A stretch of 64,000 nt of DNA from Bifidobacteriaceae bacterium (GCA_031281585.1 JAITFE010000056.1:24566-88565), one strand, 5' to 3'. Counted from the stretch's first letter, positions 4,718 to 60,437 are shown. The notes: generated by a model not told the origin, from the sequence alone. Translations and numbers: made by a program.

Positions 4718-7414
4718 GTGAGCCAACACCGTCAGTTATCCCATCTGCACCCCGCCGTGCCCGAACGCCCCGCCCTGGACGGGTTGGAGGACAAATGGGA
4801 CAAGGCCTGGTCAGAGCAAGGCGTCTACACGTTCCAGCCCGGCACCCCGCGTGAGCAGGTCTTTTCCATTGACACGCCGCCGCCAACCGTCTCCGGGTCG
4901 CTGCATGTGGGCCACGTCTTCTCCTACACCCACACCGACGTTGTGGCGCGCTTCCAGCGCATGCGCGGCAAGGACGTCTTCTACCCCATGGGCTGGGACG
5001 ACAACGGGCTCCCGACCGAACGCCGGGTGCAGAACTACTACGGCGTGCGCTGCGAGCCGTCGCTCCCGTACGACCCGGATTTCACCCCGCCGCAAGAAGG
5101 CGGCGAGGGCAAGTCCACCAAGGCCGCCCACCAGGTGCCCATCTCGCGCCGGAACTTCGTCGAGCTGTGCGAGCGCCTCTCGTCCCAGGACGAGAAGCAG
5201 TTCGAGGCCCTCTGGCGCCACTTGGGGCTTTCCGTCGACTGGTCGCAGACGTACCAGACCATCGACCGCCACTCGCGCGCCACCTCGCAGTTGGCGTTTC
5301 TCCGCAACCTGGCCCGCGGCGAGGCCTACCAGCAGTTGGCCCCCACGCTTTGGGATGTGACCTTCCGCACGGCCGTCGCCCAGGCCGAGTTGCTCGACAA
5401 GGACCAGCCCGGTGCCTATCACCGGATCGGCTTTAGCCGCGCGGAAGGGCCTTCCGCGAACCCCGCCGATGCCGTCCGCCCGCCCGCCGCGGCCGCCCAG
5501 CCCGGTCAGCGGGTTTTCATTGAGACGACCCGACCCGAACTGCTTCCCGCCTGCGTCGCCTTGGTGGCGCACCCCGATGACGAGCGCTACCAGGACTTGT
5601 TCGGCGCCCATGTGGTGGTGCCGCTGTTCGGCACCGAGGTGCCGGTGGTGGCCCACCGGCTGGCCGAGCCGGACAAGGGCTCCGGGATCGCCATGGTCTG
5701 CACCTTCGGCGACGTCACGGACGTGATCTGGTGGCGCGAGCTTCACCTGCCGACCAGGGCGATCCTGGGCTGGGACGGCCGCGTCCTGCCGGAGCCGCCC
5801 ATGGGGATCGACTCGGAGGAGGGCTTGGCGAACTACGCCCAACTGGCCGGGCTGACGGTGTTCAGCGCCCGCCAGCGCGTGGTGGAGTTGCTCCGCGAGG
5901 CGGGCGACATGGAGGGCGAGCCCCAGCCGATCGAGCACAAGGTCAAGTTCTTCGAGAAGGGCGAGAAGCCGCTCGAGATCATCCCGACCCGCCAGTGGTA
6001 TTTGACGAACGGGGGCACCGGCGAGGAGTTGCGCGCCCAGTTGCTGGCCCGCGGCGACGAGTTGACCTGGTTCCCGGAGTTCATGCGCGTGCGCTACCAG
6101 AACTGGGTCGAGGGGCTGAACAGCGACTGGCTGATCTCCCGCCAGCGCTTCTTCGGCGTGCCGTTCCCGGTCTGGTATCCGGTGGACCAGTTCGGCCACC
6201 CGGTCTACGACCGGCCGATCCTCCCGCCGGAGGACGCGCTGCCGGTCGACCCGGCCTCGGACGCGCCCGCCGGCTACAAGCCCGAGCAGCGCGGCAAGCC
6301 CGGCGGCTTCATTGGCGACCCGGACGTGATGGACACCTGGGCCACGTCCTCGCTGACCCCGCAGATCGCCACCCACTGGCGCGACGACCAGGGCTTGTAC
6401 CAGTCGACTTTCCCAATGGACCTCCGCCCGCAGGCCCAGGACATCATCCGCACCTGGCTGTTCGCCACGGTGGTCCGGGCGGACCTGGAGCAACACTCCT
6501 TGCCCTTCTACAACGCCGCCATCAGCGGTTTCATCCTCGACCCGTTCCGCAAGAAAATGTCCAAGTCGGTGGGCAACGTGGTCACCCCGATGGGTTTGCT
6601 ACAGGAGCACGGGTCCGATGCCGTCCGTTACTGGGCCGCCTCCGCCCGCCTTGGCACCGACGCGGCTTTTGACCCCGGCCAGATGAAGGTCGGGCGGCGC
6701 CTCGCGATCAAGCTCCTGAACGCCTCGAAGTTCGCGCTCTCCTTCCTGGCCGAGGAAGAGGCGGCTGCTTCGGCGGCCGGGCCGAAGCTGGTCCTCGACC
6801 CGGCGTTGGTGACCGACCCGCTGGACTTGTCCATGTTGGCCGCCCTGCGGGAGGTCGTGGCGACCGCGACCGAGGCCCTTGCGGGTTACGACCACACGCG
6901 GGCGTTGGAGGTGACGGAGACCTTCTTCTGGACGTTCTGCGACGACTACATCGAATTGGTCAAGGCGCGCGCGCATGGGGCGGTTGGCCCCGAGGGCGCC
7001 GAGTCGGCCCGCACTGCCCTGGGCTTGGCCCTGTCGGTGCTGCTCCGGTTGTTCGCGCCGTTCCAGCCTTTCGCCACGGAGGAGGTCTGGTCCTGGTGGC
7101 ACCAGGCGGGTGACTCGATTCACCGCGAGCCGTGGCCCACCCCGGACGAACTGGGCGGAGACTGCTCCAAGCCAGGCGACCCGACCGTCTTGGCGGTGGC
7201 CGGCGGCGTGCTGGGCGCGCTCCGGCGGGCGAAGTCTGAGGCCAAGGTCTCAATGCGCACCGAGATCGAGTCCGCGACGGTGGCCGTCCCGGCCAACTTG
7301 ACCGCCGCGGCGGTGGCCGCCAAGTCCGACATCATGGCGGCGGGCCGAACGGCGGACCTGACGCTGGCGGCCTCCGACACGGAGACAATCACCCTGCTCC
7401 AATCCACCCTGTAA
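4718..7414 (+). CDS. valS: valyl-tRNA synthetase
   Basis: 898 aa with SGSLHVGHVFSY (HIGH-type) and RKKMSKSVGN (KMSKS), and editing and anticodon-binding regions of ValS-like length. GTG start preceded by GGGAGGA. Confidence 0.9.
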   Translation: MSQHRQLSHLHPAVPERPALDGLEDKWDKAWSEQGVYTFQPGTPREQVFSIDTPPPTVSGSLHVGHVFSYTHTDVVARFQRMRGKDVFYPMGWDDNGLPTERRVQNYYGVRCEPSLPYDPDFTPPQEGGEGKSTKAAHQVPISRRNFVELCERLSSQDEKQFEALWRHLGLSVDWSQTYQTIDRHSRATSQLAFLRNLARGEAYQQLAPTLWDVTFRTAVAQAELLDKDQPGAYHRIGFSRAEGPSANPADAVRPPAAAAQPGQRVFIETTRPELLPACVALVAHPDDERYQDLFGAHVVVPLFGTEVPVVAHRLAEPDKGSGIAMVCTFGDVTDVIWWRELHLPTRAILGWDGRVLPEPPMGIDSEEGLANYAQLAGLTVFSARQRVVELLREAGDMEGEPQPIEHKVKFFEKGEKPLEIIPTRQWYLTNGGTGEELRAQLLARGDELTWFPEFMRVRYQNWVEGLNSDWLISRQRFFGVPFPVWYPVDQFGHPVYDRPILPPEDALPVDPASDAPAGYKPEQRGKPGGFIGDPDVMDTWATSSLTPQIATHWRDDQGLYQSTFPMDLRPQAQDIIRTWLFATVVRADLEQHSLPFYNAAISGFILDPFRKKMSKSVGNVVTPMGLLQEHGSDAVRYWAASARLGTDAAFDPGQMKVGRRLAIKLLNASKFALSFLAEEEAAASAAGPKLVLDPALVTDPLDLSMLAALREVVATATEALAGYDHTRALEVTETFFWTFCDDYIELVKARAHGAVGPEGAESARTALGLALSVLLRLFAPFQPFATEEVWSWWHQAGDSIHREPWPTPDELGGDCSKPGDPTVLAVAGGVLGALRRAKSEAKVSMRTEIESATVAVPANLTAAAVAAKSDIMAAGRTADLTLAASDTETITLLQSTL

Positions 7415-7469
7415 AAACGGGGACGGTACCTATTTCCGGCGAGCCGGAAATAGGTACCGTCCCCGTTTT
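7414..7469. repeat. palindromic GGGGACGGTACC-core element, probable bidirectional terminator (valS > < permease)
   Basis: AAAACGGGGACGGTACCTATTTCCGGC-GA-GCCGGAAATAGGTACCGTCCCCGTTTT. The arms are perfect complements, with an A-run on one side and a T-run on the other. Confidence 0.85.
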
Positions 7470-7516
7470 CGGGTGGGCCCGGCGGAGGCCGGGAGCAGAC
7501 GCCGTCCCCGCTGCGG

Positions 7517-11272: not shown

Positions 11273-11292
11273 AATATACACTCAATGTATAT
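11273..11292 (-). promoter_or_regulatory. candidate PadR operator overlapping a -10 box; leaderless padR transcript
   Basis: The 7-5-7 inverted repeat ATATACA-CTCAA-TGTATAT (11274..11292) is an AT-rich island in GC-rich DNA. On the minus strand, TATATT (11278..11273) is followed by 6 nt and then the ATG at 11266. Confidence 0.45.
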
Positions 11293-11503
11293 CGAGGCAA
11301 ACGCCGCTTGAAGCGGGGCCTTGCCAGAGGCGGAGGTGGCAATGGCCGTACCCGTTCCGTTCCTTCCCCGTGCGCGGGGACCAAGGAAACTCTCCGGGGC
11401 CGCGGCCAAAGCGATGGGGCACCGGGTTGCCGGAGGCGCGGCGGACGGCACCGCGCCGAGGCTGGTTGGCCGCCGAGGACCGCGCTCTGTTCGGCCGACC
11501 CGT

Positions 11504-11925
11504 CAATTGGCGTTTCTGTGCTGTCGGCCCACGCCCAGTGGCGTCTTCCGTGCCGCAGACCCGCCCAGCGGCGTCTCCTGTGCCGCACGGGCCTGCCAAC
11601 CCCGCCGACCGGCGTTTCCTGTGCCGCCAGCTCGTCGAGTGGCGGATCGTGTGCCGCCGACGCCGCCCAGCGGCGTTTCCTGTGCCGCGCGGGCCCCCCA
11701 ACCCCGCCGACTGGCGGATTTTGTCCGCGCGGTTTTGCGTACGCGCTGGTCAGAGGGTTGGCCTTCGTCGAGTGGCGTACATTATCCACCGCTCGACGAG
11801 GTGGATGGCCAAGGACGGCACAAGAAACGCCACTGGGCGGCCCGGACGTTGCCGAATCCGCCGTTCGGCGCCGAGTGGCGGATCCTGTACCGGCGACACC
11901 GCCCAGCGGCGGATCACGGGTCCGC
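11504..11925. repeat. array of short degenerate repeats with a ~101-bp higher-order period in a 0.9 kb non-coding gap
   Basis: A core of roughly CAGCGGCGTTTCCTGTGCCGC starts at 11504, 11536, 11566, 11607, 11637, 11668 and 11709. Weaker copies start at 11770, 11873 and 11904, and one inverted copy lies at 11816..11840. Segment 11536..11636 closely resembles 11637..11738. Confidence 0.8.
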
Positions 11926-12211
11926 CAACCCATGACACAGCGGCACAAGACCCGTCCCTCGGCCTTCTCGGCCAACCCCCACCCACGGATCCAGGCGGAA
12001 GCGCCGGAAACGGCCTCAAAATGGGGACGGCGCCAGGACCCGGTCGGCCGGAAACGGCCTCCCAAACCCCATTGAGCCGCCTTCCCCAGGTCCCCCTCGG
12101 CGCGGCCGGACACGGAATGGTAATAGACGGCAAGGTATCTTTATGCGTGGCCGTGCTCCGACGTCGGGGCCGCGGAATGAACCAACCAACGCAAGCAAAG
12201 GACTAACACCC

Positions 12212-13054
12212 ATGACTATCCGTCCTAGTAGAGCCCTGCTCGGCCTTGGCCTGGCCATCAGCGCGACCCTCGCGCTGGGCGCCTGCGGCACCGGCGAAGT
12301 TGAAAGGGCCGGCGAGGCCAGCAAGAGCCCAAGCGCGGGGGCCGGCGCCGGGGCCAGCGAAGAGGCGCCAACGGTCAAGACCGTCACCGAAGGCAAGCTG
12401 AAGGTCTGCACCAACCCGCCTTACGCCCCGTTCGAGGCCACAGACGGAACCGAGGTCTTCGGCTTCGACATGGACTTGACCACCGAGGTCGCCAATGATC
12501 TAGGCCTGGAGATCGAGTTCGTGATCGCCGGCTTCGAGTCGATCGAATCTGCGGCCGCGATCGACACCGGCACCTGCGACATTGGCGCCAGCGCCCTGTC
12601 CATCACGGAAGACCGGCTCGCCAAGCTCGACTTCTCCGACTCCTATTACGAGACCACCATGGGCCTGCTGGTCAAAGCGGACTCCGGCATTGCCACCATC
12701 GCGGACCTGGTCGACAAGCCGGTCGGCGTCCAGCAGGGCACCACCGGCGAGGACTGGGCGAACGAGCAGCCCGAACTGACCAACATCAAACAGTACGAGG
12801 GCCTGGGCGACCAGGTGACGGCGCTCAAGGCGGGCGACGTGGTGGGCGTGTTCAACGACGTGCCGACCTTGACCCCGTACGAGGACGAGGGTTTCACCGT
12901 GGTGGACACCTTCGCCACCGGCGACAAGCTCGGCTTCGCAGTCCAGAAGGGCAACACGGCCCTGCTCGACCAGATCAACAAGACGCTGCAGCGGCTCCGC
13001 TCGGACGGCTCGTATGACGAATACGTCGCGAAGTGGTTCTCCGTCAAGGAGTGA
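12212..13054 (+). CDS. amino acid ABC transporter substrate-binding lipoprotein
   Basis: The ATG at 12212 is preceded by AAAGGA. It has a signal peptide with the lipobox LALGAC, and the mature part looks like a polar amino-acid binding protein (KVCTNPPYAPFE, GVQQGTTGE). Confidence 0.85.
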   Translation: MTIRPSRALLGLGLAISATLALGACGTGEVERAGEASKSPSAGAGAGASEEAPTVKTVTEGKLKVCTNPPYAPFEATDGTEVFGFDMDLTTEVANDLGLEIEFVIAGFESIESAAAIDTGTCDIGASALSITEDRLAKLDFSDSYYETTMGLLVKADSGIATIADLVDKPVGVQQGTTGEDWANEQPELTNIKQYEGLGDQVTALKAGDVVGVFNDVPTLTPYEDEGFTVVDTFATGDKLGFAVQKGNTALLDQINKTLQRLRSDGSYDEYVAKWFSVKE

Positions 13055-46592: not shown

Positions 46593-46606
46593 TCGAAGCG
46601 CTTCGA
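46593..46606. promoter_or_regulatory. candidate LacI-family operator
   Basis: TCGAAGCGCTTCGA is a perfect 14-bp palindrome in the divergent GH3/lacI control region. It has the same length and central AGCGCT as the CebR-type box TGGGAGCGCTCCCA. Confidence 0.5.
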
Positions 46607-47830: not shown

Positions 47831-47833
47831 ACG

Positions 47834-47867
47834 CGAAAAACGGGGACGGTACCGTCCCCGTTTTTCG
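47834..47867. terminator. minimal GGGGACGGTACC-core palindrome, bidirectional intrinsic terminator (lacI > < dxs)
   Basis: CGAAAAACGGGGACGGTACCGTCCCCGTTTTTCG is a perfect palindrome with an A5 run on one side and a T5 run on the other. Confidence 0.8.
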
Positions 47868-47873
47868 GACCCG

Positions 47874-49745
47874 TCAGAGGACCGCCGGGAGAGTCGCCAG
47901 GGCACGGGCGGCGACCGCCTGGGCCGTCAGGCCCTGGCCTGCGGCGATGTCCTCGCGGTCGCCGTGGGCGAAGAACTGCTTCGCCAGGCCGCAGTTGACA
48001 ACCGGGAGGGTCAGGCCCTCGGCGGCGACCGCGCGGGCGATCGCCTCGCCCGCGCCCCCGGAGACCATGCCGTCCTCGACCGTCACCACCAGTTCGTGGG
48101 CGGCGGCCAACCTCGGCAGTCCCTCCGCCACTGGGTAGACCCAGCCCGGGTCCACCACGGTTGCGGCCACGCCGCGCTCCCCCAGCAGTTCGGCTGCGGC
48201 CAACGCCGTGCCGGTCTCATTGCCTATCCCGACCAGCAAGACCACCGAGTTGGGGCCCGTCCGCAAAAGCAAGTCCAAACCGTCCTGGCGGCTAAGCGCG
48301 GGCAGGTCGCGCGGCATCGGACCCTTGGGGTAGCGGATGACGGTGGGGGCGTCCGCCACGGCGACGGCTTCGCGCAAGAGCCGGCGCAGAGTGGCGGCGT
48401 CACGGGGCGCGGCCAGGCGCAGGCCCGGGACCAGGCGGAACAGGGCCAAGTCCCATTGGCCGTTGTGGCTGGGGCCGTCGTGGCCGGTGACGCCGGCGCG
48501 GTCCAACACGAAGGTGACGCCCGCGCGGTGCAGGGCGCAGTCCATCAAGACCTGGTCGAAGGCGCGGTTGAGGAAGCTGGCGTAGACGGCCACCACCGGG
48601 TGCGCGCCGGCGAAGGCCAACCCGGCGGCCAGCGCCGCGGCGTGCTGTTCGGCGATCCCCACGTCGAAGACCCGGTCCGGGAACTCCGCCGCGAAAGGCA
48701 CCAATCCGACCGGCTCCAACATGGCGGCGGTGATCGCCACCACCGACGAATCCTTCCGCCCTATCCGCACCACCTCGTCGGAGAACACCGAGGACCAGCC
48801 GAAACGCGAGGGCTCCAGCGGCAGGCCCGTCTCCGGGTGGATGCGGCCCACGGAGTGGAAACGGTCCGGCCCGTGGCCCTCGGCGGGGACGTAGCCCCGC
48901 CCCTTCTCGGTGATGACGTGGACCAAGACCGGGCCGCCGAAGGCCTTCGCCTGCTGCAACGCCCGTTCCACGGCCGCCTCGTCGTGCCCGTCCACGGCGC
49001 CGATGTATTTCAGGCCCAGATCCTCGAACATGGCCTGCGGGGCCACCACGTCCTTGACGCCTTTCTTCAGACCGTGCAAGGCGCCGTAAACGAAGCGCCC
49101 AAAACGGCCGCCGTGGGACCGCAGTTGGCGTTTGCCCCAGCCGAGCAGCCGCTCGTAATAGGGCGTGGTGCGCAGCCCGGACAGGTGATGCGCCAGCCCG
49201 CCAATGGTGGGCGCGTAGGAGCGGCCGTTGTCGTTGACGACTATGATCAGCCGCCCCTCGTCTGATTCGGCGATGTTGTTCAACGCCTCCCAGCTCATGC
49301 CCCCGGTCAGGGCGCCGTCCCCGACCACCACCACGGTGAAGCGGTCGGTTTGCCCGGCCAGACGCCGGCCGGCCGCTATCCCAGCCGCCCAGGACAGCCC
49401 CGCGGAGGCGTGGGTGTTCTCCAGCACGTCGTGGACCGATTCGGCCCGCGACGGGTAGCCGGACAGGCCGCCCTCCTGCCGCAAACGGTCGAAGTCCTGG
49501 CGGCCGGTCAGGATCTTGTGGACGTAGGCGATGTGGCCCGTGTCGAACACGATGGTGTCTCGCGGCGAGTCGAACACCCGGTGCAGAGCTATGGTCAACT
49601 CCACCACCCCGAGGTTCGGCCCCAGATGGCCGCCGGCTTTGGACACCTTGTCCACCAGGAAATCGCGGATGTCCGCCGCCAAATCCCCGATCAGCTCCGG
49701 CGGCAGCTTCTTCAGCAGCCTTGGGTTGGACACCTGGGACAACAC
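47874..49745 (-). CDS. dxs: 1-deoxy-D-xylulose-5-phosphate synthase
   Basis: GHLGPNLGVVELTIALH and the TPP motif GDGALTGGMSWEALN. The start is placed at the GTG at 49745 (VLSQVSNPRLLKKL); the track ORF begins at a TTG at 49847. Confidence 0.9.
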   Translation of the reverse strand: MLSQVSNPRLLKKLPPELIGDLAADIRDFLVDKVSKAGGHLGPNLGVVELTIALHRVFDSPRDTIVFDTGHIAYVHKILTGRQDFDRLRQEGGLSGYPSRAESVHDVLENTHASAGLSWAAGIAAGRRLAGQTDRFTVVVVGDGALTGGMSWEALNNIAESDEGRLIIVVNDNGRSYAPTIGGLAHHLSGLRTTPYYERLLGWGKRQLRSHGGRFGRFVYGALHGLKKGVKDVVAPQAMFEDLGLKYIGAVDGHDEAAVERALQQAKAFGGPVLVHVITEKGRGYVPAEGHGPDRFHSVGRIHPETGLPLEPSRFGWSSVFSDEVVRIGRKDSSVVAITAAMLEPVGLVPFAAEFPDRVFDVGIAEQHAAALAAGLAFAGAHPVVAVYASFLNRAFDQVLMDCALHRAGVTFVLDRAGVTGHDGPSHNGQWDLALFRLVPGLRLAAPRDAATLRRLLREAVAVADAPTVIRYPKGPMPRDLPALSRQDGLDLLLRTGPNSVVLLVGIGNETGTALAAAELLGERGVAATVVDPGWVYPVAEGLPRLAAAHELVVTVEDGMVSGGAGEAIARAVAAEGLTLPVVNCGLAKQFFAHGDREDIAAGQGLTAQAVAARALATLPAVL

Positions 49746-49853
49746 CGTCCCGGGCGGGCGGGTCCGGCCTCGGCCGAGATCCCTGCGCGCGGCATTCAAC
49801 AGCGCAGCACCTTTCTGTTGTTGTGCCTCAACGTTGCTGGTCCTCAATAATAC

Positions 49854-49887
49854 GGCGGGGCGCCCGGAAGAACCGGAACGCCCCGCC
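49854..49887 (-). terminator. intrinsic terminator downstream of acnA
   Basis: GGCGGGGCG...CGCCCCGCC is a stem of 9 G:C-rich pairs. On the minus strand it is followed by GTATTATT. Confidence 0.55.
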
Positions 49888-49943
49888 TCAGACGCTGGGC
49901 CGACAGAGTTTTGAAAGCCCCTTCACCCCACTGCGGCCAGCGT

Positions 49944-52688
49944 TCAAGCGGTCAGTTGACGCAATACAAATTGCAAAATGCCGCCGTTCCGATAGTAGTC
50001 GGCTTCGCCGGGCGTGTCGATACGGACCACGGCATCGAACACCACGGCCGTGCCGTCCGCCCTGGTGGCCGTGACCCTGACGGTCTTGGGGGTGACGCCG
50101 TTGTTCAACTCTTGAACGCCCTGGATGTCGAACACCTCCGTGCCGTCGAGCCCCAGCGAATCGGCCGACTGGCCAGCCGGGAATTGCAGCGGGAGGACGC
50201 CCATGCCGATCAGGTTGGAACGGTGGATGCGCTCGAACGACTCGGTGATGACGGCCTTGACCCCCAAAAGCAGCGTGCCCTTGGCAGCCCAGTCGCGGGA
50301 CGACCCGGTGCCGTATTCCTTGCCGCCCAGCACCACCAGCGGGACGCCGGCGGCCTTGTATGCCTCGGCGGCTTCGAAGATGGTGGTCTGGACGCCGCCG
50401 TCCAAGAAGTTGACGGTGTAGCCGCCGGCCACGTCCACCAATTGGTTGCGCAGCCGGATGTTGGCGAACGTGCCCCGCATCATGACCTCGTGGTTGCCCC
50501 GGCGCGAGCCGTAGGAGTTGAAGTCCTTCACCGCCACGCCGTGGTCCGCCAGGTAGCGGCCGGCCGGCGAGTCGGCCTTGATGTTGCCGGCCGGGGAGAT
50601 GTGGTCCGTGGTGACCGAGTCGCCCAGCTTGGCCAGCACCCGGGCGCCGGCGATGTCCGCCACCGGCTCCGGCGCGGCCCCCATGCCCTCGAAGTAGGGG
50701 GGTTTGCGCACGTACGTGGAGGCGTCGTCCCATTCGAAGACCGCGCCCTCGGGGGTGGGCAGCGAGCGCCAGCGCTCGTCGCCCGCGAAGACGTCCGCGT
50801 AGGACGCCTCGTACATGCCCCGCGAGATCGTGGCGTCGATGGTCGCCTGGACCTCCTCCGGCGTGGGCCAGACGTCTTTCAGGAAAACCGGCCGCCCGTC
50901 CTGGTCAAAGCCCAGCGGGTCCGTCTCGAAGTCGAAGTCGAGCGTCCCCGCCAGCGCGTACGCCACCACCAACGGCGGGCTGGCCAGGTAGTTCATGGCG
51001 ATGTCCGGCCCGATCCGGCCCTCGAAGTTGCGGTTGCCGGACAGGACAGCGGTCACGGCCAGGCCGTTCTCCCCGATCGCCTGCGAGATTTCCGGCGCCA
51101 GCGGCCCCGAGTTGCCAATGCAGGTGGTGCAGCCGTAGCCCACCACGTTGAAGCCCAGCGCGTCCAGCGCCGGCCACAGGCCCGCCTTGTCGTAGTAGGC
51201 GGTCACGGCCTTGGAGCCGGGCGCCATGGACGTTTTCACCCAGGGCTTCGACTTGAGCCCCTTGTCAGCGGCCTTTTGCGCCAGCAGGCCGGCCGCCAAC
51301 ATCACGGACGGGTTCGACGTGTTGGTGCAGGACGTGATCGACGCGATGCAGACGTCGCCGTGGTTGAGCGTGAACTCGCCCTTGCCGGGCACGCTCACGG
51401 GGACCGCCTTGGCTTTGACGGGGTCCGATGCCGCCGGGTCGGACGCCGGGAAGGATTCGGCTTCCGATTCGTCCCCGGCCGCCGCCGCCACATCCGCCGC
51501 GTAGTTCGGCAAGTCCCGCCGGAAGGCCTGTTTGGCCTGGGCGAGTTCGATCCGGTCCTGCGGCCGCTTCGGCCCGGCGATGGACGGCACCACCGTGGAC
51601 AGGTCCAGGTCCAGGTATTCGGAGAAGACCGGCTCCACGTAGTCGGGGCTGGCCGGGTCGAACCAGAGGCCTTGTTCCTTGCAGTAGGCCTCGATCAGGG
51701 CGACCTGCTCCTCGGAGCGGCCCGTCAGGCGGTAGTAGTCCAGGGTGACGCCGTCAACCGGGAAGATGCCGCAGGTGGAGCCGAACTCCGGGCTCATGTT
51801 GCCGATCGTGGCGCGGTTGGCCAGCGGCACCTGGGAGACGCCCTCGCCGTAGAACTCGACGAACTTGCCGACCACGCCGTGCTGGCGCAGCTTCTCGGTG
51901 ATGGTCAGCACCACGTCCGTGGCGGTCACGCCCTGCGGGATGGCGCCGTGCAGCTTGAACCCCACCACGCGCGGGATCAGCATTGAGACCGGCTGGCCCA
52001 GCATGGCGGCCTCCGCCTCGATCCCGCCCACGCCCCAGCCCAGGATTCCCAGGCCGTTGACCATGGTGGTGTGGGAGTCGGTGCCGACGCAGGAGTCCGG
52101 GTAGGCCTGGCCGCCGCGCTCCATGACGCCGCGCGCCAGGTACTCGATGTTGACTTGGTGGACAATGCCAGTGCCGGGGGGCACAACTTTGAACTCGCTG
52201 AAGGCGCCCTGGCCCCAGCGCAAGAACTGGTAGCGCTCGCGGTTGCGGTCGTATTCGATGGCCACGTTGAGGTCGAAGGCCTTGTCGGTGCCCGCGTACT
52301 CGATGATCACCGAGTGGTCGATCACCATCTCCGCGGGGGCGAGCGGGTTGATCTTGTTCGGGTCGCCGCCCAGTTCCGCCACCGCCTCGCGCATGGTGGC
52401 CAGATCCACCACACAGGGCACGCCGGTGAAGTCCTGCATCACCACGCGCGCTGGCGTGAACTGGATCTCGACCGACGGGTCGGCGGCCGGATCCCAGTTG
52501 GCGAGCGCCCTGACCTGGTCGGCCGTGATGGTGGCGCCGTCCTCGTTGCGCAGGATCGACTCCGCCAGAATCTTGAGCGAGAAGGGCAGCTTCTCCAGCC
52601 CTGCGACCGCGCTCAAGCGGAATATCTCGTAGTTGTTGCCGCCAACGCTCAACTGCGAGCGGGCGCCGAATGTATCAAGTGAGGCCAT
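49944..52688 (-). CDS. acnA: aconitate hydratase A
   Basis: 914 aa with Fe-S ligand regions SCTNTSNP and [12 protein letters not shown], and full-length similarity in layout to AcnA/IRP-type aconitases. Confidence 0.95.
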
Positions 52689-52903
52689 GAGTGTGGAAAA
52701 TCCCTTTCTGGGCTTCCCGTCGCGGGGGTGCCCGGTGCATGTATCTCGACGTCGAGGTAAATGCTACTCTACTACCTTTCCATCCAATTATCTCTCGCCT
52801 TTGGTGGGCTCTTGACCATTTCGGGGCACGGCCGCGCTGGCCGCCATGTGAGATGGATCACAATCGGCTGAACCAGACGCGCCACCCGGTCTAGCTTGAC
52901 CCC

Positions 52904-53158
52904 ATGGCAGGCGTGATGGCGCCCGATCTCCGGGCTGACGCGGGCAAACGCCCGGGCCCCGCCATGCCGATAATCGGGGTGGCGCTCATCGTGATCAGCC
53001 CCGCAGTCGACTTCGGCCTGGGGCTCTTGGGCATGATGGGCGCCGGCCTCAACTCCGCCCACTGGGAGATCGCAGGCAGCGTGGTCGGCGCCACGGTCTT
53101 CCTGATCGGCCTGAACCTACTGGTCCTGGGCCTGATCCGCCGCTCCCGCCATCCCTAA
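52904..53158 (+). CDS. small hypothetical membrane protein (two TM helices)
   Basis: 84 aa with strong G/C bias at third codon positions by eye and two hydrophobic helices. The start may be the internal Met (MPIIGVAL). Confidence 0.45.
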   Translation: MAGVMAPDLRADAGKRPGPAMPIIGVALIVISPAVDFGLGLLGMMGAGLNSAHWEIAGSVVGATVFLIGLNLLVLGLIRRSRHP

Positions 53159-53159
53159 C

Positions 53160-53182
53160 AAAATGGGGACGGTACCGTTTTT
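53160..53182. repeat. half copy of the GGGGACGGTACC-core element
   Basis: AAAATGGGGACGGTACCGTTTTT. Only ACGGTACCGT is self-complementary. It lies between convergent gene ends. Confidence 0.7.
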
Positions 53183-53238
53183 CTTGTGGTCCCGTAACCG
53201 CTCCTGTCCCCGCCGGCGGCGGGCAAGGCGCGGGATTG

Positions 53239-53676
53239 TCAGGCGGCCGCATTGGCTTGGCCCCCAAGGAACGGGTTGACAACGGTGATGCCCCCATACT
53301 CTTGGCCATGGCCCAGGTCCTCGGACAAGACGACGCGGCAGCCGAGGGTCCGCGCCGACTCGATAATCGCGGCGTCCCAATATGACAGCCCGTAGCGCTC
53401 GCGGGTCCGCATGGCGTTGCGTACAACGGGCAGGGTCAGATCCTGAACGGGAAAGCGCGTGAACGATTCGACCAAGTCCGCGGCCTGCTCGTGGCTCACC
53501 GGATTGGCCCGGGTGGCGCGGGTCGCCTGGACGTAGAACTCCTGTAGCACTTGGACCGACAGCGCCAGATCGGCGCCGTCAAGGATGTCGCGGGCCACCG
53601 CCGCCTTGTCCGCCTCCCCGGGGTCGGTGGAGATCGCGTACAGCAGCACGTTCGTGTCAACGAAGCGCACGGTCAT
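53239..53676 (-). CDS. vapC: PIN-domain toxin VapC
   Basis: MTVRFVDTNVLLYA (first Asp), LQEF (Glu), YWDAAI (Asp) and LSED. 145 aa. Confidence 0.85.
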   Translation of the reverse strand: MTVRFVDTNVLLYAISTDPGEADKAAVARDILDGADLALSVQVLQEFYVQATRATRANPVSHEQAADLVESFTRFPVQDLTLPVVRNAMRTRERYGLSYWDAAIIESARTLGCRVVLSEDLGHGQEYGGITVVNPFLGGQANAAA

Positions 53677-53902
53677 GCGCCGATTCGCGGTCGAGTCGGT
53701 CGCGGGCGGAGAAGCCGCCGATGGAGGCCATGGTCCGCCGCTGCAATTCGGCCAGCCGCTCGAACTCCCCGTCCGGCCCGCCCAGCGACCGCAGATATGC
53801 CGCCACCAGCGCGCTGACCGAAGTGCCCGCCTCCGCGGCGCGAATACGGGCCGACCGGTACACGTCCTCTGGCACGCTCAACGTCACATTCTTCACAGTC
53901 AC
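53657..53902 (-). CDS. vapB: ribbon-helix-helix antitoxin VapB
   Basis: 81 aa. VKNVTLSVPEDVYRSARIRAAEAGTSVSALVAAYL is a typical RHH N-terminus. It lies immediately upstream of vapC and overlaps it. Confidence 0.75.
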   Translation of the reverse strand: MTVKNVTLSVPEDVYRSARIRAAEAGTSVSALVAAYLRSLGGPDGEFERLAELQRRTMASIGGFSARDRLDRESAHDRALR

Positions 53903-53922
53903 ACAGTATCACAGCTACACAG

Positions 53923-54873
53923 TCATGCCCCGAGCGCGCGGGGGTGCGCGGACGCGTAGACCTCGCGCAGGTGCTCCGGGGTGACCTTGGTGTAAATCTG
54001 AGTCGTCGTGACCGAGGAGTGGCCCAGCAACTCCTGGACCACGCGAATGTCGGCGCCGCCTTGCAGCAGGTGGGTGGCGAAAGAGTGGCGGAGCGTGTGC
54101 GGCGTGGCCTGCGGCTGGCCGATCGCCACGCCCGCAGCTCTGACCAGCTCAAACGCCGCCTGTCGGGACAACCGGCGGCCGCGCGGGCCGACCAGCAGGG
54201 CGGGGGTGCCCCGGCCCCGCGCCACACGGGCCGGCCGCTCCCGCACCACGTAGTGCTCAACCGCGACGCGGGCGCACACGCCCATCGGTATGACCCGCTC
54301 TTTGCCGCCTTTGCCGAGCACGCGCACCCATGACTGTTCGGCGGGCATCGGATCGGAAATGGGGACGGTACCTGTTTCTGGCTTGCCAGAAACAGGTACC
54401 GTCCCCATTTCCGGGAGGTCGTCCAGATCCAGCTGAAGCGCCTCGGAGACGCGCGCGCCCGTGCCGTAGAGCAACTCGACCAAGGCGCGCGCCGTCAAGT
54501 CCTCCCCGCACGCGGCGATCAAAGACTCGACCTGCTCCACGGTCAGCGCCTTCGGCAGCCGCAAACCCGCCTTGGGCGGCTTCACCTCCGCCGCCGGGTT
54601 GTCCGGCGTCCAGCCCTCCATGAACGCGAATTTGTGCAGGCCGCGCACGGCGGACAAGGCGCGCGCCACCGAGGAGGCGGCCAACCCGGAGGCGACCAGC
54701 CCGGACCGGAACCCCTCGATCACCGCCGGCCCGACCGCCGCCAACTCCACCTGGCCCACATAAGCGCAATACCGCTCCAGGTCGCGCTCGTAGGCCTCGA
54801 TAGTGGCGGCGCTGACCGCCCGCTCGACCCGCAAGTGGGCCAAGAACCGCTTCCGAGCCGCCGTGATCAGCAC
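53923..54873 (-). CDS. xerD: tyrosine recombinase XerD (XerC/D family) carrying an in-frame repeat-derived insertion
   Basis: N-terminal SAM-like AYERDLERY, then ARVSE (Arg), [19 protein letters not shown] and [14 protein letters not shown] (Tyr). GTG start at 54873. The choice of XerD over XerC rests on the N-terminal pattern only. Confidence 0.85.
54355..54412. repeat. perfect 58-bp GGGGACGGTACC-core palindrome inside the xerD coding sequence
   Basis: GGAAATGGGGACGGTACCTGTTTCTGG-CTTG-CCAGAAACAGGTACCGTCCCCATTTCC, read in the xerD frame as [19 protein letters not shown]. Confidence 0.9.
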
Positions 54874-54935
54874 ATCTCAATACTGGCGCACCGGGTGGAT
54901 CGGCCCAGTCCGGCGCGCAGGCCGCCCCTAGGATT

Positions 54936-57029
54936 GTGGTCATGTCGCAATCGTTCCACTGGACCAACCTTGACAATGAGGCCGTCGCCGCCGCCAAAGC
55001 CCTCGCCGCAGATTCGGTCGAGAAGGCTGGCTCCGGCCATCCCGGCACCGCCATCTCGCTGGCCGGCGCCGCCTACTTGCTCTTCCAGCGCCTCATGACC
55101 CATGATCCGGCCGATCCGGCGTGGCCGGGCCGGGACCGCTTCATCCTCAGCGCCGGGCACACGTCGGTCATGCTCTACACCCAGTTGTACCTGGCCGGCT
55201 ACGACGTCTCCCTAGACGACCTCAAGGCGTTGCGCACCGCGGGCTCCATCACCCCCGGCCACCCCGAGGTGGGCATGACCCCCGGCGTGGAGATGTCGAC
55301 CGGCCCGCTGGGCCAGGGTCTGGCCAGCGCGGTCGGCATGGCCATGGCCGCCCGCCGCGAGCGCTTCCTCTTCGATCCGGCCCCCCAGGCCGACGATGCC
55401 GCCGGGCCGACCACCAGCCCCGACAGCGTCTTCGACCACACCATTTGGGTGATCGCCGGCGAAGGCGACCTGGAGGAGGGCATCACCTCCGAGGCGTCCT
55501 CCCTGGCGGGCACGCAGAAGCTGGGCAACCTGGTGGTGTTGTTCGACCAGAACCAGATCTCGATCGAGGGCGACACGAACGTGGCCTTCACGGAGAACGT
55601 GGTCGAACGCTACGAGGCGTACGGCTGGCACACCCAGACGGTCGATTGGACCAGCGGCGGCCGCTACCACGAAGACTACGAGGCGCTCTACCAGGCGCTC
55701 CAGGCCGCCAAGGCGGAAACGGGCAGGCCGTCCCTGGTCAGGCTGCGCTCGATCATCGGCTGGCCCGCCCCGACCAAGCAGAACACGGGCGGCATCCACG
55801 GCTCCAAGCTGGGCGCGCCGGAGGTGGCGGGGCTCAAGCGCGCGCTTGGCCTGGACCCGGACGCGACGTTCAACGTGCCGGAGGAGGTCCTGTCGGTCAC
55901 CCGCCAGGCCCGCGAGCGCGGCGCGAAGGCCCACGTGGCCTGGCGGGCCCGCTTCGACCAGTGGCGCGCTGTCAACCCGGCGGGGGCGGAACTCTGGGAC
56001 CGGCTGAGCCAAAAGGCGCTCCCGGCGGACATAGAAGACGCGCTGCCCTTGTTCGCGGCGGGGTCTTCGATGGCGACCCGGGCGGCATCGGGCAAGGTGC
56101 TGTCCGCGCTGGGACCGGTCCTGCCGGAACTGTGGGGAGGCTCGGCGGACTTGGCGGGCTCCAACAACACGACCATCGCGGGGGCGACGTCCTTCCTGCC
56201 GGACAACCCGGGCGGGCGCACCATCCACTTTGGGGTGCGGGAGCACGCGATGGGGGCCATCCTGAACGGGATCGCACTACACGGCCCGACCCTCCCCTAC
56301 GGCGGCACCTTCCTGGTTTTCTCCGACTACATGCGGGGCGCGGTCCGGCTGACGGCCCTGATGAACCTGCCGGTCACGTTCGTTTGGACGCATGACTCGA
56401 TCGGGGTGGGCGAGGACGGCCCGACCCATCAGCCCGTCGAGCAACTCGCCTCGCTCAGGGCCATCCCGGGCTTGGACGTGATCCGGCCCGCGGACGCCAA
56501 CGAGGTCGCTTGGGCCTGGCGCCATGTGCTGGCGCGGCGCCGTCCGGCCGCTTTGATCCTGAGCCGGCAAAACCTTCCGGTCTTCGACCGGCTGGGGGAA
56601 GGGCTGGGCCAAGCGGTCGACCTGTGCGGCGGGGCCTATGTCCTGGCGGATTCGGAACTGCCGAGGATCGACGTCGTCTTGTTGGCCACCGGCTCGGAGG
56701 TGCAACTCGCGTTGAGCGCCCGCGCGCTGCTGGCCAAGGAGGGGATCGGGGCCCGTGTCGTGTCCGCGACCTGCCTGGAGTGGTTCGCGGAGCAGACGCC
56801 CGAATACCGCGAGGACGTGCTGCCGGCGGCGGTCAAGGCCAGGGTCTCGGTCGAGGCCGGGATCGCCATGCCGTGGCGCCAGTGGGTGGGCGATGCCGGT
56901 CGGTGCGTCTCGGTCGAAGCCTACGGGGAGTCGGCGGCGGCCGGGGAGCTGTTCGAACGGAACGGCTTCACCGCCGAACACGTGGCCGAGGCGGCCCGGC
57001 AGTCGATCGCGGCCGCGCGGACTCCATGA
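54936..57029 (+). CDS. tkt: transketolase
   Basis: GSGHPGTA, the TPP motif AGEGDLEEGITSEA, and HDSIGVGEDGPTHQP. Confidence 0.95.
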   Translation: MVMSQSFHWTNLDNEAVAAAKALAADSVEKAGSGHPGTAISLAGAAYLLFQRLMTHDPADPAWPGRDRFILSAGHTSVMLYTQLYLAGYDVSLDDLKALRTAGSITPGHPEVGMTPGVEMSTGPLGQGLASAVGMAMAARRERFLFDPAPQADDAAGPTTSPDSVFDHTIWVIAGEGDLEEGITSEASSLAGTQKLGNLVVLFDQNQISIEGDTNVAFTENVVERYEAYGWHTQTVDWTSGGRYHEDYEALYQALQAAKAETGRPSLVRLRSIIGWPAPTKQNTGGIHGSKLGAPEVAGLKRALGLDPDATFNVPEEVLSVTRQARERGAKAHVAWRARFDQWRAVNPAGAELWDRLSQKALPADIEDALPLFAAGSSMATRAASGKVLSALGPVLPELWGGSADLAGSNNTTIAGATSFLPDNPGGRTIHFGVREHAMGAILNGIALHGPTLPYGGTFLVFSDYMRGAVRLTALMNLPVTFVWTHDSIGVGEDGPTHQPVEQLASLRAIPGLDVIRPADANEVAWAWRHVLARRRPAALILSRQNLPVFDRLGEGLGQAVDLCGGAYVLADSELPRIDVVLLATGSEVQLALSARALLAKEGIGARVVSATCLEWFAEQTPEYREDVLPAAVKARVSVEAGIAMPWRQWVGDAGRCVSVEAYGESAAAGELFERNGFTAEHVAEAARQSIAAARTP

Positions 57030-58543
57030 CGGTCAACCCGTTGGTCGATCCGCTGGACCAACGCGTCCCCCGGATCCCGGCGCCGTGCGCGCTGACGATC
57101 TTCGGCGTGACCGGCGACTTGGCCCGCCGCAAGGTGCTGCCCGCCATCTACGACTTGGCGAACCGGGGGCTGTTGCCCGCCGGGTTCTCCTTGACCGGGG
57201 TGGCCCGCTCCGACTGGTCCACGGCCCAGTTTGTGGGCCAAGCCCACGCGGCGGTGGCCTCGGGCGCCCGGACGCCTTTCCGCCAGCGGGTGTGGGAGCA
57301 GTTGACCGCGTCGATGGCCTACGTCAGCGGCGACATCCAGGACGCGGACACGTATGCCCGCCTGGGCGAGGTGCTGGACAATTCGGACCGCGGCTTCGGC
57401 ACCGGCGGGCGCCGCGTCTTTTACCTGTCCATGCCGCCCGCCACCTTCGACGCCATCTGCGGCCACCTGGCCACCTCCGGCCTGGCGGGCCAGGGCAAGG
57501 ACGCCAAGGTGGTGATAGAGAAGCCGTTCGGCCATGACCTCGCCTCGGCGAGGGCGCTCGATTCGACGCTCAGCCAGGTCTTCGAGGCGTCCAGCGTCTT
57601 TCGGATTGACCACTACCTTGGCAAAGAGACGGTGCGGGGCATGTTGGCGACCCGGTTCGCGAACCAGGTCTTCGAGCCGTTGTGGTGCCGCGACCACGTG
57701 GACCACGTCCAAATCACCATGGCGGAGGAGTTGGGGGTCGGCTCGCGGGCCGGCTATTACGACGGGATTGGCGCCACGCGGGACGTGATGCAGAACCACC
57801 TTCTCCAACTGCTGGCGATCACCGCGATGGAGGAGCCGGCCTCCTTCGGCCCGGCCGACCTCAGGGCGGCCAAAGAGGCCGCCCTGGCGGCGGTCCGCAT
57901 TCCCGGCCCGGTGGCCGAATGCGCGGCGCGGGGCCAGTACACGGCCGGCTGGCAAGGCAACATCCCCGTGCCGGGCTACCTGGACGAGCCGCGGATCCCG
58001 GACGACTCGAGGACGGACACCTACGGGGCGCTCAAGTTGGAGGTCCAAACCGACCGCTGGCGGGGCACGCCGTTCTACCTGCGCACCGGCAAACGCCTGG
58101 GACGGCGCGTGACCGAGGTGGCGATCACCTTCCGGCGCACCGCCGACCAGCTCCGAGCCGCCGCGCAGGGGCCGCCGCCCGGAGCCAACGCGCTGGTCAT
58201 CCGAATCCAGCCGGACGAGGGCATCACCCTGCGAATTGGCGCCAAAGTGCCCCAAACCAACATGGAGGTGCGGGACGTGACCATGGACTTCTCCTACGGC
58301 CACGCCTTCACCGAGTCGCTGCCGGACGCCTACGAGCCGCTGATTCTGGACGTGCTGTTGGGCCAAGACCCCCTCTTCCCCCGGTCGCGCGAGGTGGACG
58401 AATCCTGGCGGGTGATCGACCAGGTGGAGGATTACTGGGCCTCGTTGGACACCCGGCCCGAACCGTATGAGGCCGGCACTTGGGGGCCGGCGGGAGCGGA
58501 CGCCCTGCTCAGGCGGGACGGCCGGGAATGGAGGCGGCCGTGA
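57026..58543 (+). CDS. zwf: glucose-6-phosphate dehydrogenase
   Basis: The ATG at 57026 overlaps the tkt stop (ATGA). Motifs: IFGVTGDLARRK (NADP), RIDHYLGKE, EKPFGHD. Confidence 0.93.
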   Translation: MTVNPLVDPLDQRVPRIPAPCALTIFGVTGDLARRKVLPAIYDLANRGLLPAGFSLTGVARSDWSTAQFVGQAHAAVASGARTPFRQRVWEQLTASMAYVSGDIQDADTYARLGEVLDNSDRGFGTGGRRVFYLSMPPATFDAICGHLATSGLAGQGKDAKVVIEKPFGHDLASARALDSTLSQVFEASSVFRIDHYLGKETVRGMLATRFANQVFEPLWCRDHVDHVQITMAEELGVGSRAGYYDGIGATRDVMQNHLLQLLAITAMEEPASFGPADLRAAKEAALAAVRIPGPVAECAARGQYTAGWQGNIPVPGYLDEPRIPDDSRTDTYGALKLEVQTDRWRGTPFYLRTGKRLGRRVTEVAITFRRTADQLRAAAQGPPPGANALVIRIQPDEGITLRIGAKVPQTNMEVRDVTMDFSYGHAFTESLPDAYEPLILDVLLGQDPLFPRSREVDESWRVIDQVEDYWASLDTRPEPYEAGTWGPAGADALLRRDGREWRRP

Positions 58544-59577
58544 TCATTCCGCTGTACGCGACTTCCACCGCGCAGGTCGCCACCAAGCTGGTCGAACTGC
58601 GGGAAGACGGCGGGGTGGCGGCCCTGGGGCGGGTGCTGACGTTGATCATCCAGTGCGAGGCCGGGGACATCGAGACGTCTATCCAAGCCGCGAACCTGGC
58701 CTCCATGGAACACCCCTGCCGGGTGATCGTGCTGACCGCCGAGGACCTGGACGGACCCGCGTCGATGGACGCGCAGATCAGGGTCGGATCGGACGCCGGC
58801 GCCTCAGAAGTGATCGTCCTCAGGCTCCGCGGCGAGCCGGGGAGGCACCTCGACGCGGTCGCCACGCCGCTCCTGCTGCCGGACACGCCCGTCGTGGCGT
58901 GGTGGCCGGACCAGCGTCCCGCCGTGCCGGCTGAGGACCGGTTGGGAGCGTTGGCCTCGCGCCGGATCACCGACGCGACCACCTCGGAACGCCACTTGGC
59001 CGGCGATGCCGACGCGGCGCCCCTGCTCTCGGCGTTGACCTCGGGCTACCGGCCGGGCGACACGGATCTGACTTGGACCAGGCTCACGCCCTGGCGGGCG
59101 GGGCTGGCGGCGGCTTTGGAGATCCCGCCAACCGAACCCGTCACATCGGCGACTGTGAGGGGGCCTTGCTCGACGGCATCGTACTTGATGGCGGCGTGGT
59201 TGACCGACCGTTTGCGGGTGCCGACGCGGCACCAGGCGAACGACTCGCCGTTCCTGACGGCCGTCGAGTTCCACTTGTCCGGCGGCCGGCGGATCCTGCT
59301 GGACAAGGAACTGGAGGAGTCGCAAGCCGTGCTGCGCATCACCGGGCAGGTGGACCGCGTGATCACGCTCAGCCGCCGCAGCCGGGCCGAGGCGCTGGCG
59401 GAGGAGCTTCGGCGGCTCGAACCGGACGCCGCCTACGGCCATCTGGTCTTGGATGCCGTGCCCGCGTTCGTGGAGGCGATGGGTGCCGGCGCCGCCGGGG
59501 AGCAGGACCCGCCGCCGCTCTTGGGCGCGGCGGGAAGCGCGGCGACGGGAAGCGCGGCGACGGGCGGCGCCTCATGA
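58540..59577 (+). CDS. opcA: glucose-6-phosphate dehydrogenase assembly protein OpcA
   Basis: It follows zwf with a GTGA overlap; the ATG at 58528 is the alternative start. VIIPLYATSTAQV...RVLTLII is the typical OpcA N-terminus. Confidence 0.8.
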   Translation: MIIPLYATSTAQVATKLVELREDGGVAALGRVLTLIIQCEAGDIETSIQAANLASMEHPCRVIVLTAEDLDGPASMDAQIRVGSDAGASEVIVLRLRGEPGRHLDAVATPLLLPDTPVVAWWPDQRPAVPAEDRLGALASRRITDATTSERHLAGDADAAPLLSALTSGYRPGDTDLTWTRLTPWRAGLAAALEIPPTEPVTSATVRGPCSTASYLMAAWLTDRLRVPTRHQANDSPFLTAVEFHLSGGRRILLDKELEESQAVLRITGQVDRVITLSRRSRAEALAEELRRLEPDAAYGHLVLDAVPAFVEAMGAGAAGEQDPPPLLGAAGSAATGSAATGGAS

Positions 59578-60335
59578 GGGACGTGATCGTTCTGCCGGAC
59601 CCCATGGCGGTGGCGGAGGCCGCCGCGCAGCGCCTGGCAGGGTTCTTGCTTGAGTCCCAGTCCCTGGCCTCGGCCACCCATGTGGCGCTGACCGGCGGCG
59701 GGACCGGGATCGCGGTGCTGGACCGTCTGCGCGCCAACCCGCTGTTGGGCGCGATTTCCTGGCCGGACGTGCACTTTTGGTGGGGCGATGAGCGCTTCGT
59801 GGCCGCCGGGTCGCCCGAGCGCAACGATTCCCAAGCCCGCCGGGCGCTGCTGGATCATTTGCCTGAGGCGCCGGGCGGGACGCATCCCGTCTCCGCCGCC
59901 AATGAGGGGTTGTCGCTTGAGGAGGCCGCCACACGCTACACCGCTGACCTGCGCCGCCACCAGGTGCGGTTCGACCTGGTGCTGTTGGGCGTGGGGCCGG
60001 ACGGGCATGTCGCGTCGATCTTCCCTGGCGCTGGCGACGGCACGGGCCTGGCGGCGCCCGGCGCGTTCGCCGTGCCCAACTCGCCCAAGCCGCCCCCGGC
60101 ACGGGTGTCGCTGACTCTGGACACCATCAACGCCGCACGCCAGGTCTGGCTGGTGGCGGCCGGTTCGGCCAAACGGGACGCGGTGGCCGCGGCGCTCGGC
60201 TTGGCGGCGCGCCCGGCCCCGCAACAAGAATCCGCCGGCCCGGCCGACGCGGCCCGCGCTCCCGTCCCGGCCGCGCGGGTGGCGGGCCGCGAACGCACTC
60301 TGTGGCTGGTCGACGCGGCGGCGGCTGCGGCCTGA
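59574..60335 (+). CDS. pgl: 6-phosphogluconolactonase
   Basis: The ATG at 59574 overlaps the opcA stop (ATGA). Motifs: LTGGGTG, WWGDERFV, LLGVGPDGHVAS. Confidence 0.88.
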   Translation: MRDVIVLPDPMAVAEAAAQRLAGFLLESQSLASATHVALTGGGTGIAVLDRLRANPLLGAISWPDVHFWWGDERFVAAGSPERNDSQARRALLDHLPEAPGGTHPVSAANEGLSLEEAATRYTADLRRHQVRFDLVLLGVGPDGHVASIFPGAGDGTGLAAPGAFAVPNSPKPPPARVSLTLDTINAARQVWLVAAGSAKRDAVAAALGLAARPAPQQESAGPADAARAPVPAARVAGRERTLWLVDAAAAAA

Positions 60336-60339
60336 CGCC

Positions 60340-60437
60340 GGAAATGGGGACGGTACCTTTTTCGGCCCAAGCCGAAAAAGGTACCGTCCCCATTTCTTAG
60401 CTGGGAGTTAGCTGGAAACGGTACCGTCCCCGTTTTT
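60340..60437. repeat. full GGGGACGGTACC-core palindrome (60340..60396) plus a partial copy (60414..60437) between pgl and the DUF11 gene
   Basis: The full copy is GGAAATGGGGACGGTACCTTTTTCGGC-CCAA-GCCGAAAAAGGTACCGTCCCCATTTC. The partial copy GAAACGGTACCGTCCCCGTTTTT lies inside the last codons of the minus-strand gene. Confidence 0.88.

Follow-up and report, generated by a model that had tools for sequence, protein, structure and literature searches.

REP elements, mostly inverted doublets, form a lineage-specific repeat family most likely amplified by a single-copy RAYT transposase in an uncultured high-G+C actinobacterium

A 64,000-nucleotide stretch from a Bifidobacteriaceae bacterium (GCA_031281585.1 JAITFE010000056.1:24566-88565, corresponding to C94:24566-88565 of the draft genome and referred to here as the window) carries palindromes built on the 12-mer GGGGACGGTACC, several of them at gene junctions and one inside a gene. 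What are these palindromes? Are they terminators, binding sites of a host protein, or mobile DNA? A first-pass annotation of the window described them as a dispersed element resembling repetitive extragenic palindromic (REP) sequences, doubling as bidirectional terminator at nearly every convergent gene junction. The follow-up described here argues that they are REP elements, mostly inverted doublets (REPINs), and that they form a lineage-specific, non-autonomous family most likely amplified by a single-copy REP-associated tyrosine transposase (RAYT) of the HUH/Y1 type encoded at C71:25010-25612. We give this reading a probability of about 0.82.

How widespread is the core? The genome is a 3.98-Mb draft in 169 contigs, 68% G+C and 95% complete, of an uncultured high-G+C actinobacterium. 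It contains 183 exact GGGGACGGTACC cores against ~2 expected, spread over 65 contigs, so the genome-wide dispersal proposed from the window alone is borne out. The window itself holds 12 exact copies, on both strands, where 0.57 would be expected, a number reached in none of 100 shuffles. No other non-coding k-mer family of the genome is as abundant as the GGGGACGGTACC family (family 1). Its cores are arranged as 58 inverted doublets and 67 single cores, some of the latter in tandem arrays of uniform orientation that repeat every 25-108 nt, and grouping of cores lying within 150 nt of each other gives 101 loci. Six of these loci are in the window; with a genome-wide mean of ~1.6 loci per 64 kb, its density is ~4 times the average. 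Variants of the core with one mismatch are few, the GGCACC and GGTCCC types being the commonest; a one-mismatch match at 37042 of the window has no AAA/TTT flanks and is probably due to chance. The genome also has ~50 copies of a 36-nt repeat, ATTGCGCCGCTCTTCAGCGGCGCCCTTCATTGAGGC, which resembles a CRISPR (clustered regularly interspaced short palindromic repeats) repeat. As this is a different 36-mer, family 1 was ruled out as a CRISPR.

What is the unit that has been multiplied? The alignment of 182 usable units gives the consensus RRAAAY-GGGGACGGTACC-T(A/G/T)TTTCC(GG), with a length of about 26-28 bp and a sharp outer boundary at -6. The core is nearly invariant and the neighbouring positions are variable. 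AAA is found in 174-182 of the 182 units and, because it is present in nearly all of them, the A-run and the T-run are intrinsic to the repeat; they are not the separate terminator geometry that the first-pass annotation had seen in them. All inverted doublets form a hairpin, of ~26 bp, and most measure 46 bp from core to core; the minimum free energy of the RNA averages -50 kcal/mol over 54 doublets. The inner arms are perfectly complementary in 48 of these 54, the outer Y is symmetric in 52, and the variable position 13 is symmetric in 53 (TA in 26, TG in 15, TT in 11 and GG in 1). All six combinations of Y and position 13 are present in symmetric form, and the 4-nt loop, CNNG, varies freely. 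The near-perfect symmetry of the arms would be maintained either by selection for the hairpin or by hairpin-templated correction. Two contig ends, C28:5842-6815 and C87:1-974, overlap with 96.7% identity and no gaps, and are either strain variants or a diverged duplication; they carry the same doublet at the same site, with identical arms and a 5-nt loop that is flipped (CAGAG versus CTCTG), which suggests loop inversion within the palindrome.

Which enzyme could move such a repeat? The first-pass annotation had pointed to a RAYT elsewhere in the genome as a possible mobiliser, and a whole-genome search with Pfam Y1_Tnp located exactly two Y1_Tnp genes, one of them flanked by the GGGGACGGTACC repeat:

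C71:25010-25612: RAYT1, 200 aa, family-1 repeats on both flanks.
C160:12522-13316: RAYT2, 264 aa, 41% identical to RAYT1.

Neither has a near-identical duplicate, so both are single copy. A family-1 doublet (24816-24861) lies 148 nt upstream of RAYT1, and a reverse unit (25612-25623) provides its TAG stop codon. Family-1 cores within 300 nt on both sides are found for only 4 of 2718 called genes; besides RAYT1, the only called genes flanked on both sides are at C39:16687-17367, C103:2340-3212, C133:6994-8439 and C148:21586-22410. The commonest 16-mers in the RAYT1 flanks have 97 and 87 occurrences genome-wide and are among the most abundant of the genome, as are the flanking 16-mers in the REPIN-RAYT systems described by Bertels and colleagues, where the group averages are 57 and 140. 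Both proteins match Pfam Y1_Tnp (PF01797; 43.3 bits against a cut-off of 23), and their sole family match in NCBIfam is REP_Tyr_transpos (NF047646), with 69.3 bits and E 3e-19 for RAYT1 and 66.9 bits and E 2e-18 for RAYT2. An alignment of 29 sequences shows no variation at H60 and H62 of the HUH motif or at Y119. The AlphaFold2 model of RAYT1 (pLDDT 91.9) has as its top match in the PDB chain A of 4ER8, the E. coli TnpA-REP (YafM) with its REP hairpin (E 7.8e-9, 156 columns, target-normalised TM 0.70), and in this fold search the TnpA proteins of IS608 and ISDra2 rank behind it with E about 4e-5. RAYT1 keeps the HUH histidines and the catalytic tyrosine of its best structural match, from which it differs in sequence (~20% identity), in a 60-residue C-terminal extension and in its DNA target. 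By analogy with the E. coli enzyme and with the TnpA of IS200/IS605, RAYT1 would bind the folded single-stranded repeat, cut it and join it.

Is family 1 old or recent? Each of 40 relatives, 10 of them of the same genus, has 0-2 copies of the GGGGACGGTACC core. The 22-nt unit pattern has no match in 185,579 species genomes and none in the metagenome contigs of JGI, and an exact literature search for the 12-mer GGGGACGGTACC found nothing. The head of the unit, AAAYGGGGAC, has 213 copies in this genome, 20 in the relative G005 and 7 in G006, and is at control level in the others. Orthologous junctions, singled out in the first-pass annotation as a place to look for presence or absence of the element, can be compared at fabF/DUF3145, which is syntenic in G007, G004, G008 and G009. 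These four relatives, all of the same genus, have 10-50 nt and no element there; the junction here is 80 nt, made of a doublet and a head remnant. The near-absence of the core in 40 relatives and the empty junction indicate a recent species-specific amplification and not a conserved signal: the family is a lineage-specific amplification in one species.

But is the link between a RAYT and its repeat a peculiarity of one locus? A second, related repeat (family 2) is present in the window, and its consensus is GGGGACGGTCCTTTCTTCGAACGAyGGGGACAC:

309-411, plus strand: GTGTCCCCGTCGTTCGAAGAAAGGACCGTCCCC, two direct copies (309-341 and 379-411), at the convergent junction 289|454.

Family 2 has roughly 15-20 copies, and RAYT2 is flanked by 2+2 inverted copies of it. 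Tandem copies are frequent and repeat every 70-110 nt or so; around RAYT2, family 2 lies at C160:12284-13621. Homologues of RAYT1 were found at six loci in 5 of the 10 congeners; 30 genomes of more distant relatives have none. Flanking DNA is sufficient at five of these loci, and there each homologue lies between inverted repeats of its own, which at three loci share GGGGAC with family 1; the sixth (L086, the second locus of G010) ends at a contig end and shows no flanking repeats. The flanking repeats, by genome, are:

G006: GAAATGGGGACGGTCCCATTTTC.
G005: AAAATGGGGACAGGCCCCTTTC.
G001: a family-2-like repeat.
G010: arms of the type CGGGGACGTACTTGGTGGCTCATC.
G003: an unrelated 63-nt hairpin unit.

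At the G003 homologue (L085, G003:C16) the 63-nt repeat lies at 1193-1318 and 2213-2323 and has the hairpin ACTAATTCC-CCGG-AGGAATTAGT. Since the repeat of this homologue is quite different, the repeat type can switch completely between related RAYTs. The G006 orthologue is 62% identical to RAYT1 and occupies the same glgB/ybbN-like junction in the opposite orientation, which fits vertical inheritance plus an inversion between the flanking inverted repeats.

Could family 1 have been mobilised by something else, the RAYT being there by coincidence? It might be a miniature inverted-repeat transposable element (MITE) derived from a conventional DDE insertion sequence whose terminal inverted repeats would be the RRAAAYGGGGACGGTACC unit and which would mobilise it in trans. 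Short palindromic units, terminal inverted symmetry and high copy number would suit this idea, as in the Correia or Nezha elements. The unit of ~26 bp is, however, far below typical MITE length, a BLAST search of the genome with a doublet-bearing 1-kb stretch of its own gave only short repeat matches, and no target-site duplication is visible by inspection at the boundaries of the listed copies. A coincidental link also sits badly with two RAYT paralogues that each have their own repeat type, a pattern which recurs in the congeners. A DDE-type MITE was discarded as neither target duplication nor parent insertion sequence was seen, by an inspection that was not exhaustive, and we regard it as the least credible of the explanations considered.

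Where in the window do the family-1 copies of this putatively RAYT-driven repeat lie? Read site by site, all the copies listed in the first-pass annotation are present where it placed them, and Pfam searches agree with its labels for the flanking genes. In window coordinates they are as follows:

7413-7470, no strand: full inverted doublet (REPIN) between valS (plus strand, stop at 7414) and an FtsX-type permease gene (minus strand); cores 7419-7430 and 7453-7464, loop CGAG, flank subtype AAAAAC/GTTTTC.
12019-12031, plus strand: head-only match AAAATGGGGACGG, a possible decayed copy without tail, with flanking direct repeats GCCGGAAACGGCCT.
20739-20796, no strand: full inverted doublet between fabF (plus) and the DUF3145 gene (minus); cores 20745-20756 and 20779-20790, loop CCGG.
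20797-20810, minus strand: truncated remnant, head only, AAAAACGGGGAC, directly adjoining the doublet 20739-20796.
47836-47865, no strand: minimal form GAAAAACGGGGACGGTACCGTCCCCGTTTTTC, two units overlapping on a GGTACC centre, with overlapping exact cores that start at 47842 and 47848; between a LacI-type regulator gene (plus) and dxs (minus).
53159-53182, plus strand: single unit AAAATGGGGACGGTACCGTTTTT, core at 53165, between a small open reading frame (ORF; plus) and a PIN-domain gene (minus).
54355-54412, no strand: full inverted doublet, cores at 54361 and 54395, in frame inside a xerC/D-type recombinase gene.
60340-60397, no strand: full inverted doublet directly past the stop of pgl (60335); cores 60346-60357 and 60380-60391, loop CCAA, subtype GGAAAT/ATTTCT.
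60414-60437, minus strand: single unit, core at 60420, overlapping the last codons of a giant minus-strand gene (stop 60408-60410).

The relic suspected near 12018 is there as far as the head AAAATGGGGACGG goes, with nothing of the repeat beyond it. It sits between the direct GCCGGAAACGGCCT copies at 11999-12012 and 12047-12060, in a region (11281-12212) without a gene call.

Does this preference for gene ends hold genome-wide? The 101 loci are distributed as follows:

Convergent junctions: 34 loci, 383 junctions, 8.9% occupied.
Tandem junctions: 36 loci, 2004 junctions, 1.8% occupied.
Divergent junctions: 7 loci, 392 junctions, 1.8% occupied.
Within ORFs: 18 loci.
Contig edges: 6 loci.

The bias for gene 3' ends noticed in the window is therefore real, as the occupancy of convergent junctions exceeds that of the two other kinds. 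The idea that nearly every convergent junction is marked fails: five of the eight in the window carry family 1 (a sixth carries family 2) and 34 of 383 do so across the genome. Intergenic and contig-edge loci together make up 83 of the 101, and the other 18 overlap ORFs. The edge of an element at a convergent junction is a median of 9 nt away from the stop codon; between tandem genes the doublets lie 0-30 nt past the upstream stop, typically >100 nt before the next start. REPs in general have a similar 3'-end bias and stop-codon overlap (PMC3733652). Copies probably persist mostly just 3' of stop codons because insertion there is least harmful.

And what happens to copies that land inside genes? 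At several of the 18 ORF-overlapping loci the repeat forms the end of the reading frame, final codons and stop included, and about a dozen copies are in frame within otherwise intact genes, where the unit is translated as NGDGTYF or, in the opposite orientation, as E(M/T/I)GTVP(I/V)S. The host in the window is:

53923-54873, minus strand: intact gene of a xerC/D-type tyrosine recombinase, 316 aa, with Phage_integrase and SAM-like domains, hosting the in-frame doublet 54355-54412.

This doublet reads as a 20-residue segment, missing from the XerD orthologues of six congeners, in a loop between LDLDDL and WVRVxGKG. The exact insertion boundaries cannot be read because the length of this loop varies among the genus orthologues. 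A look-up of the exact XerD protein returned no record. Hosts confirmed by Pfam are this recombinase, an M50/PDZ site-2 protease (rseP-like), an NAD synthetase (nadE) and an ABC ATPase. The NAD synthetase, of the glutamine-dependent type, has three 21-aa tandem units, RNGDGTYFAPAARGGSGDRPAE, in its inter-domain linker, and by inspection an SMC-like protein and the tail of an RND-type transporter also carry units. Four in-frame hosts, named as NAD synthetase, SMC-like protein, M50 site-2 protease and RND-type transporter tail, are at C169:793-3318, C3:2138-6106, C106:23818-25224 and C159:51807-55427. Rickettsia palindromic elements (RPEs), which Ogata et al. are said to have described in 2000, reportedly insert in frame into intact protein-coding genes in the same manner and lengthen surface loops or linkers by a peptide. 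At about 100-150 bp, RPEs exceed the present repeat in length, and no transposase is known for them; the copies here are mostly intergenic. In PMC3733652 RPEs are mentioned only as REP-like, CGTC-tagged repeats.

Intrinsic terminators consist of a G+C-rich hairpin with a U-tract directly behind it, in which about 5 or more of 7-8 residues are U. Could the palindromes have been selected primarily as bidirectional terminators of this kind, or as stabilisers of RNA 3' ends, so that their spread and conservation reflect function? With a G+C-rich hairpin that has an A-run before it and a T-run behind it, and with a location at convergent junctions, they look the part: strong hairpins lie 0-10 nt past stops and are 5-fold enriched at convergent junctions. 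With a relaxed criterion (a hairpin of -10 kcal/mol or stronger, then a U-tract), terminator-like 3' ends are scarce, 149 of 2852 (5%), and 24 of the 149 (16%) are built from the GGGGACGGTACC repeat; put differently, 24 of 92 repeat-bearing 3' ends (26%) pass, compared with 4.5% of other 3' ends. Canonical intrinsic terminators hence appear to be scarce in this organism. In the window, GTTTT(T) tails occur on both strands for the copies that start at 7413, 20739 and 47836.

The details of the repeat nevertheless fit a selected terminator poorly. The A- and T-runs are fixed parts of a mobile unit, the T-run after the stem averages 3.4 with at least 4 T on only a third of sides, and the stem (~26 bp) is far longer than that of bidirectional intrinsic terminators, whose consensus criteria most copies fail. 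Of the elements in 40600-60500, a consensus scan picked out one doublet, on one strand only, and an adjacent single unit (60411-60440). Full doublets lie inside the xerD, rseP-like, Fe-S protein and ABC ATPase genes and, as these host genes are intact, must be read through by transcription. An apparent avoidance of genic and divergent contexts by the T-rich subtype, seen at the level of doublets (0 of 8 compared with 18 of 46 elsewhere, hand-computed p about 0.03), vanished at unit level, where there is no depletion (p 0.42), and was dropped. Moreover, 91% of convergent junctions do without the element, and so do the relatives at the same junctions, down to about 10 nt between stops. We therefore consider it unlikely that terminator function explains the family. 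We likewise hold it improbable that some of the copies really act as terminators or stabilisers: the minority with GTTTT(T) tails may also stop transcription or stabilise 3' RNA, and this would then be a by-product of an element whose origin lies elsewhere.

Is the 12-mer perhaps recognised by a host protein? Were it bound by, say, a nucleoid-associated factor or a dimeric regulator, as an operator or another kind of binding site, the copies would form a regulon or be structuring sites and not mobile DNA. An almost invariant core between variable neighbours would be expected of such a site, and the minimal form is a perfect 22-bp palindrome, as for operators of dimeric proteins. Yet the placement is wrong for a regulator, since promoters are avoided (only 7 loci are in divergent regions) and sites fall past stop codons or inside genes. 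The sites come in a mixture of single, tandem and inverted forms, the only consistently associated gene is the Y1 transposase, and the sites are missing from all congeners although the same genes are kept there. Placement and absence from the congeners led us to rule out an operator or regulon site; the idea has very little left to recommend it.

Another possibility keeps the RAYT and adds a benefit to the host. The RAYT-driven repeat may have been co-opted as a main supplier of strong 3' hairpins, acting as bidirectional terminators or protectors of RNA ends, and perhaps be kept perfectly palindromic by active hairpin-templated correction. The correction idea fits because of the six symmetric combinations of Y and position 13 and of the flipped loop at the 96.7%-identical contig ends. 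We hold this to be rather doubtful. If true, this would be a REPIN-RAYT system of an actinobacterium, with CGTC in place of GTAG, that does something for its host, and CGTC-type repeats would gain a dedicated transposase.

How does the family compare with known RAYT-driven repeats? The REPIN-RAYT systems of Pseudomonas and Enterobacteria (Bertels & Rainey 2011, PMC3116915; Bertels et al. 2017, PMC5581495) likewise consist of short palindromic units, mostly as hairpin-forming inverted doublets, with hundreds of copies in one lineage and a single-copy Y1 transposase located between repeats; the RAYT is syntenic between species there too, and a genome can have more than one RAYT, each with its own repeat type. 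They differ in that the host here is a high-G+C actinobacterium and not a proteobacterium, and in that the conserved 12-mer here occupies the outer part of a long stem; RAYT1, moreover, scores under the NCBIfam equivalog cut-off and has only 37-45% identity to its best matches outside the genus. The GTAG- and CGTC-tagged REPs, REPtrons and TIRtrons (Di Nocera et al. 2013, PMC3733652) resemble family 1 in lying between convergent or unidirectional ORFs near or over stop codons, in having copies in ORFs of housekeeping and DNA-maintenance genes and several families per genome, and in having RAYT-like genes between inverted repeats. CGTC is the tag of the second REP superfamily, for which no dedicated transposase was found (PMC3733652). 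The reverse core GGTACCGTCCCC (GGTAC-CGTC-CCC) also contains CGTC; unlike the CGTC REPs of Di Nocera et al., this repeat flanks a RAYT. Its CGTC, which may or may not correspond to that tag, is base-paired in doublets and not an unpaired end there.

Several points weigh against the RAYT-driven reading. The co-location of RAYT1, the likely mobiliser, with the repeats is circumstantial evidence. Nowhere does the unit contain GTAG, unlike classical RAYT-associated REPs. Both NCBIfam scores are under the 80-bit equivalog cut-off, and a sequence search with RAYT1 against the PDB gave no match. The orientation of single units and doublet loops has no association with local GC skew or gene strand (p 1.0 and 0.58), in a comparison of low power on a draft assembly. 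Genome counts are lower bounds because the draft is in 169 contigs, and the gene contexts come from the author's own codon-usage gene caller (2947 genes, 83% coding).

What is new here is a REPIN-RAYT system in an unusual host phylum; it is otherwise of a known kind and matches all the defining features that were tested except GTAG. To our knowledge, studies of REPIN-RAYT systems are almost confined to Proteobacteria. Actinobacteria are unmentioned in the main texts of PMC5581495 and PMC3733652. The case is a clean example from an uncultured high-G+C actinobacterium, with a non-GTAG repeat and two RAYT/repeat pairs in a single genome. In practical terms, the repeats break assemblies, extend housekeeping proteins (xerD, smc, nadE, rseP) by peptide segments and look like terminators in annotation. 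The congeners, with their diverged RAYTs, diverged flanking repeats and little or no amplification, offer a natural series on what triggers a REPIN burst.

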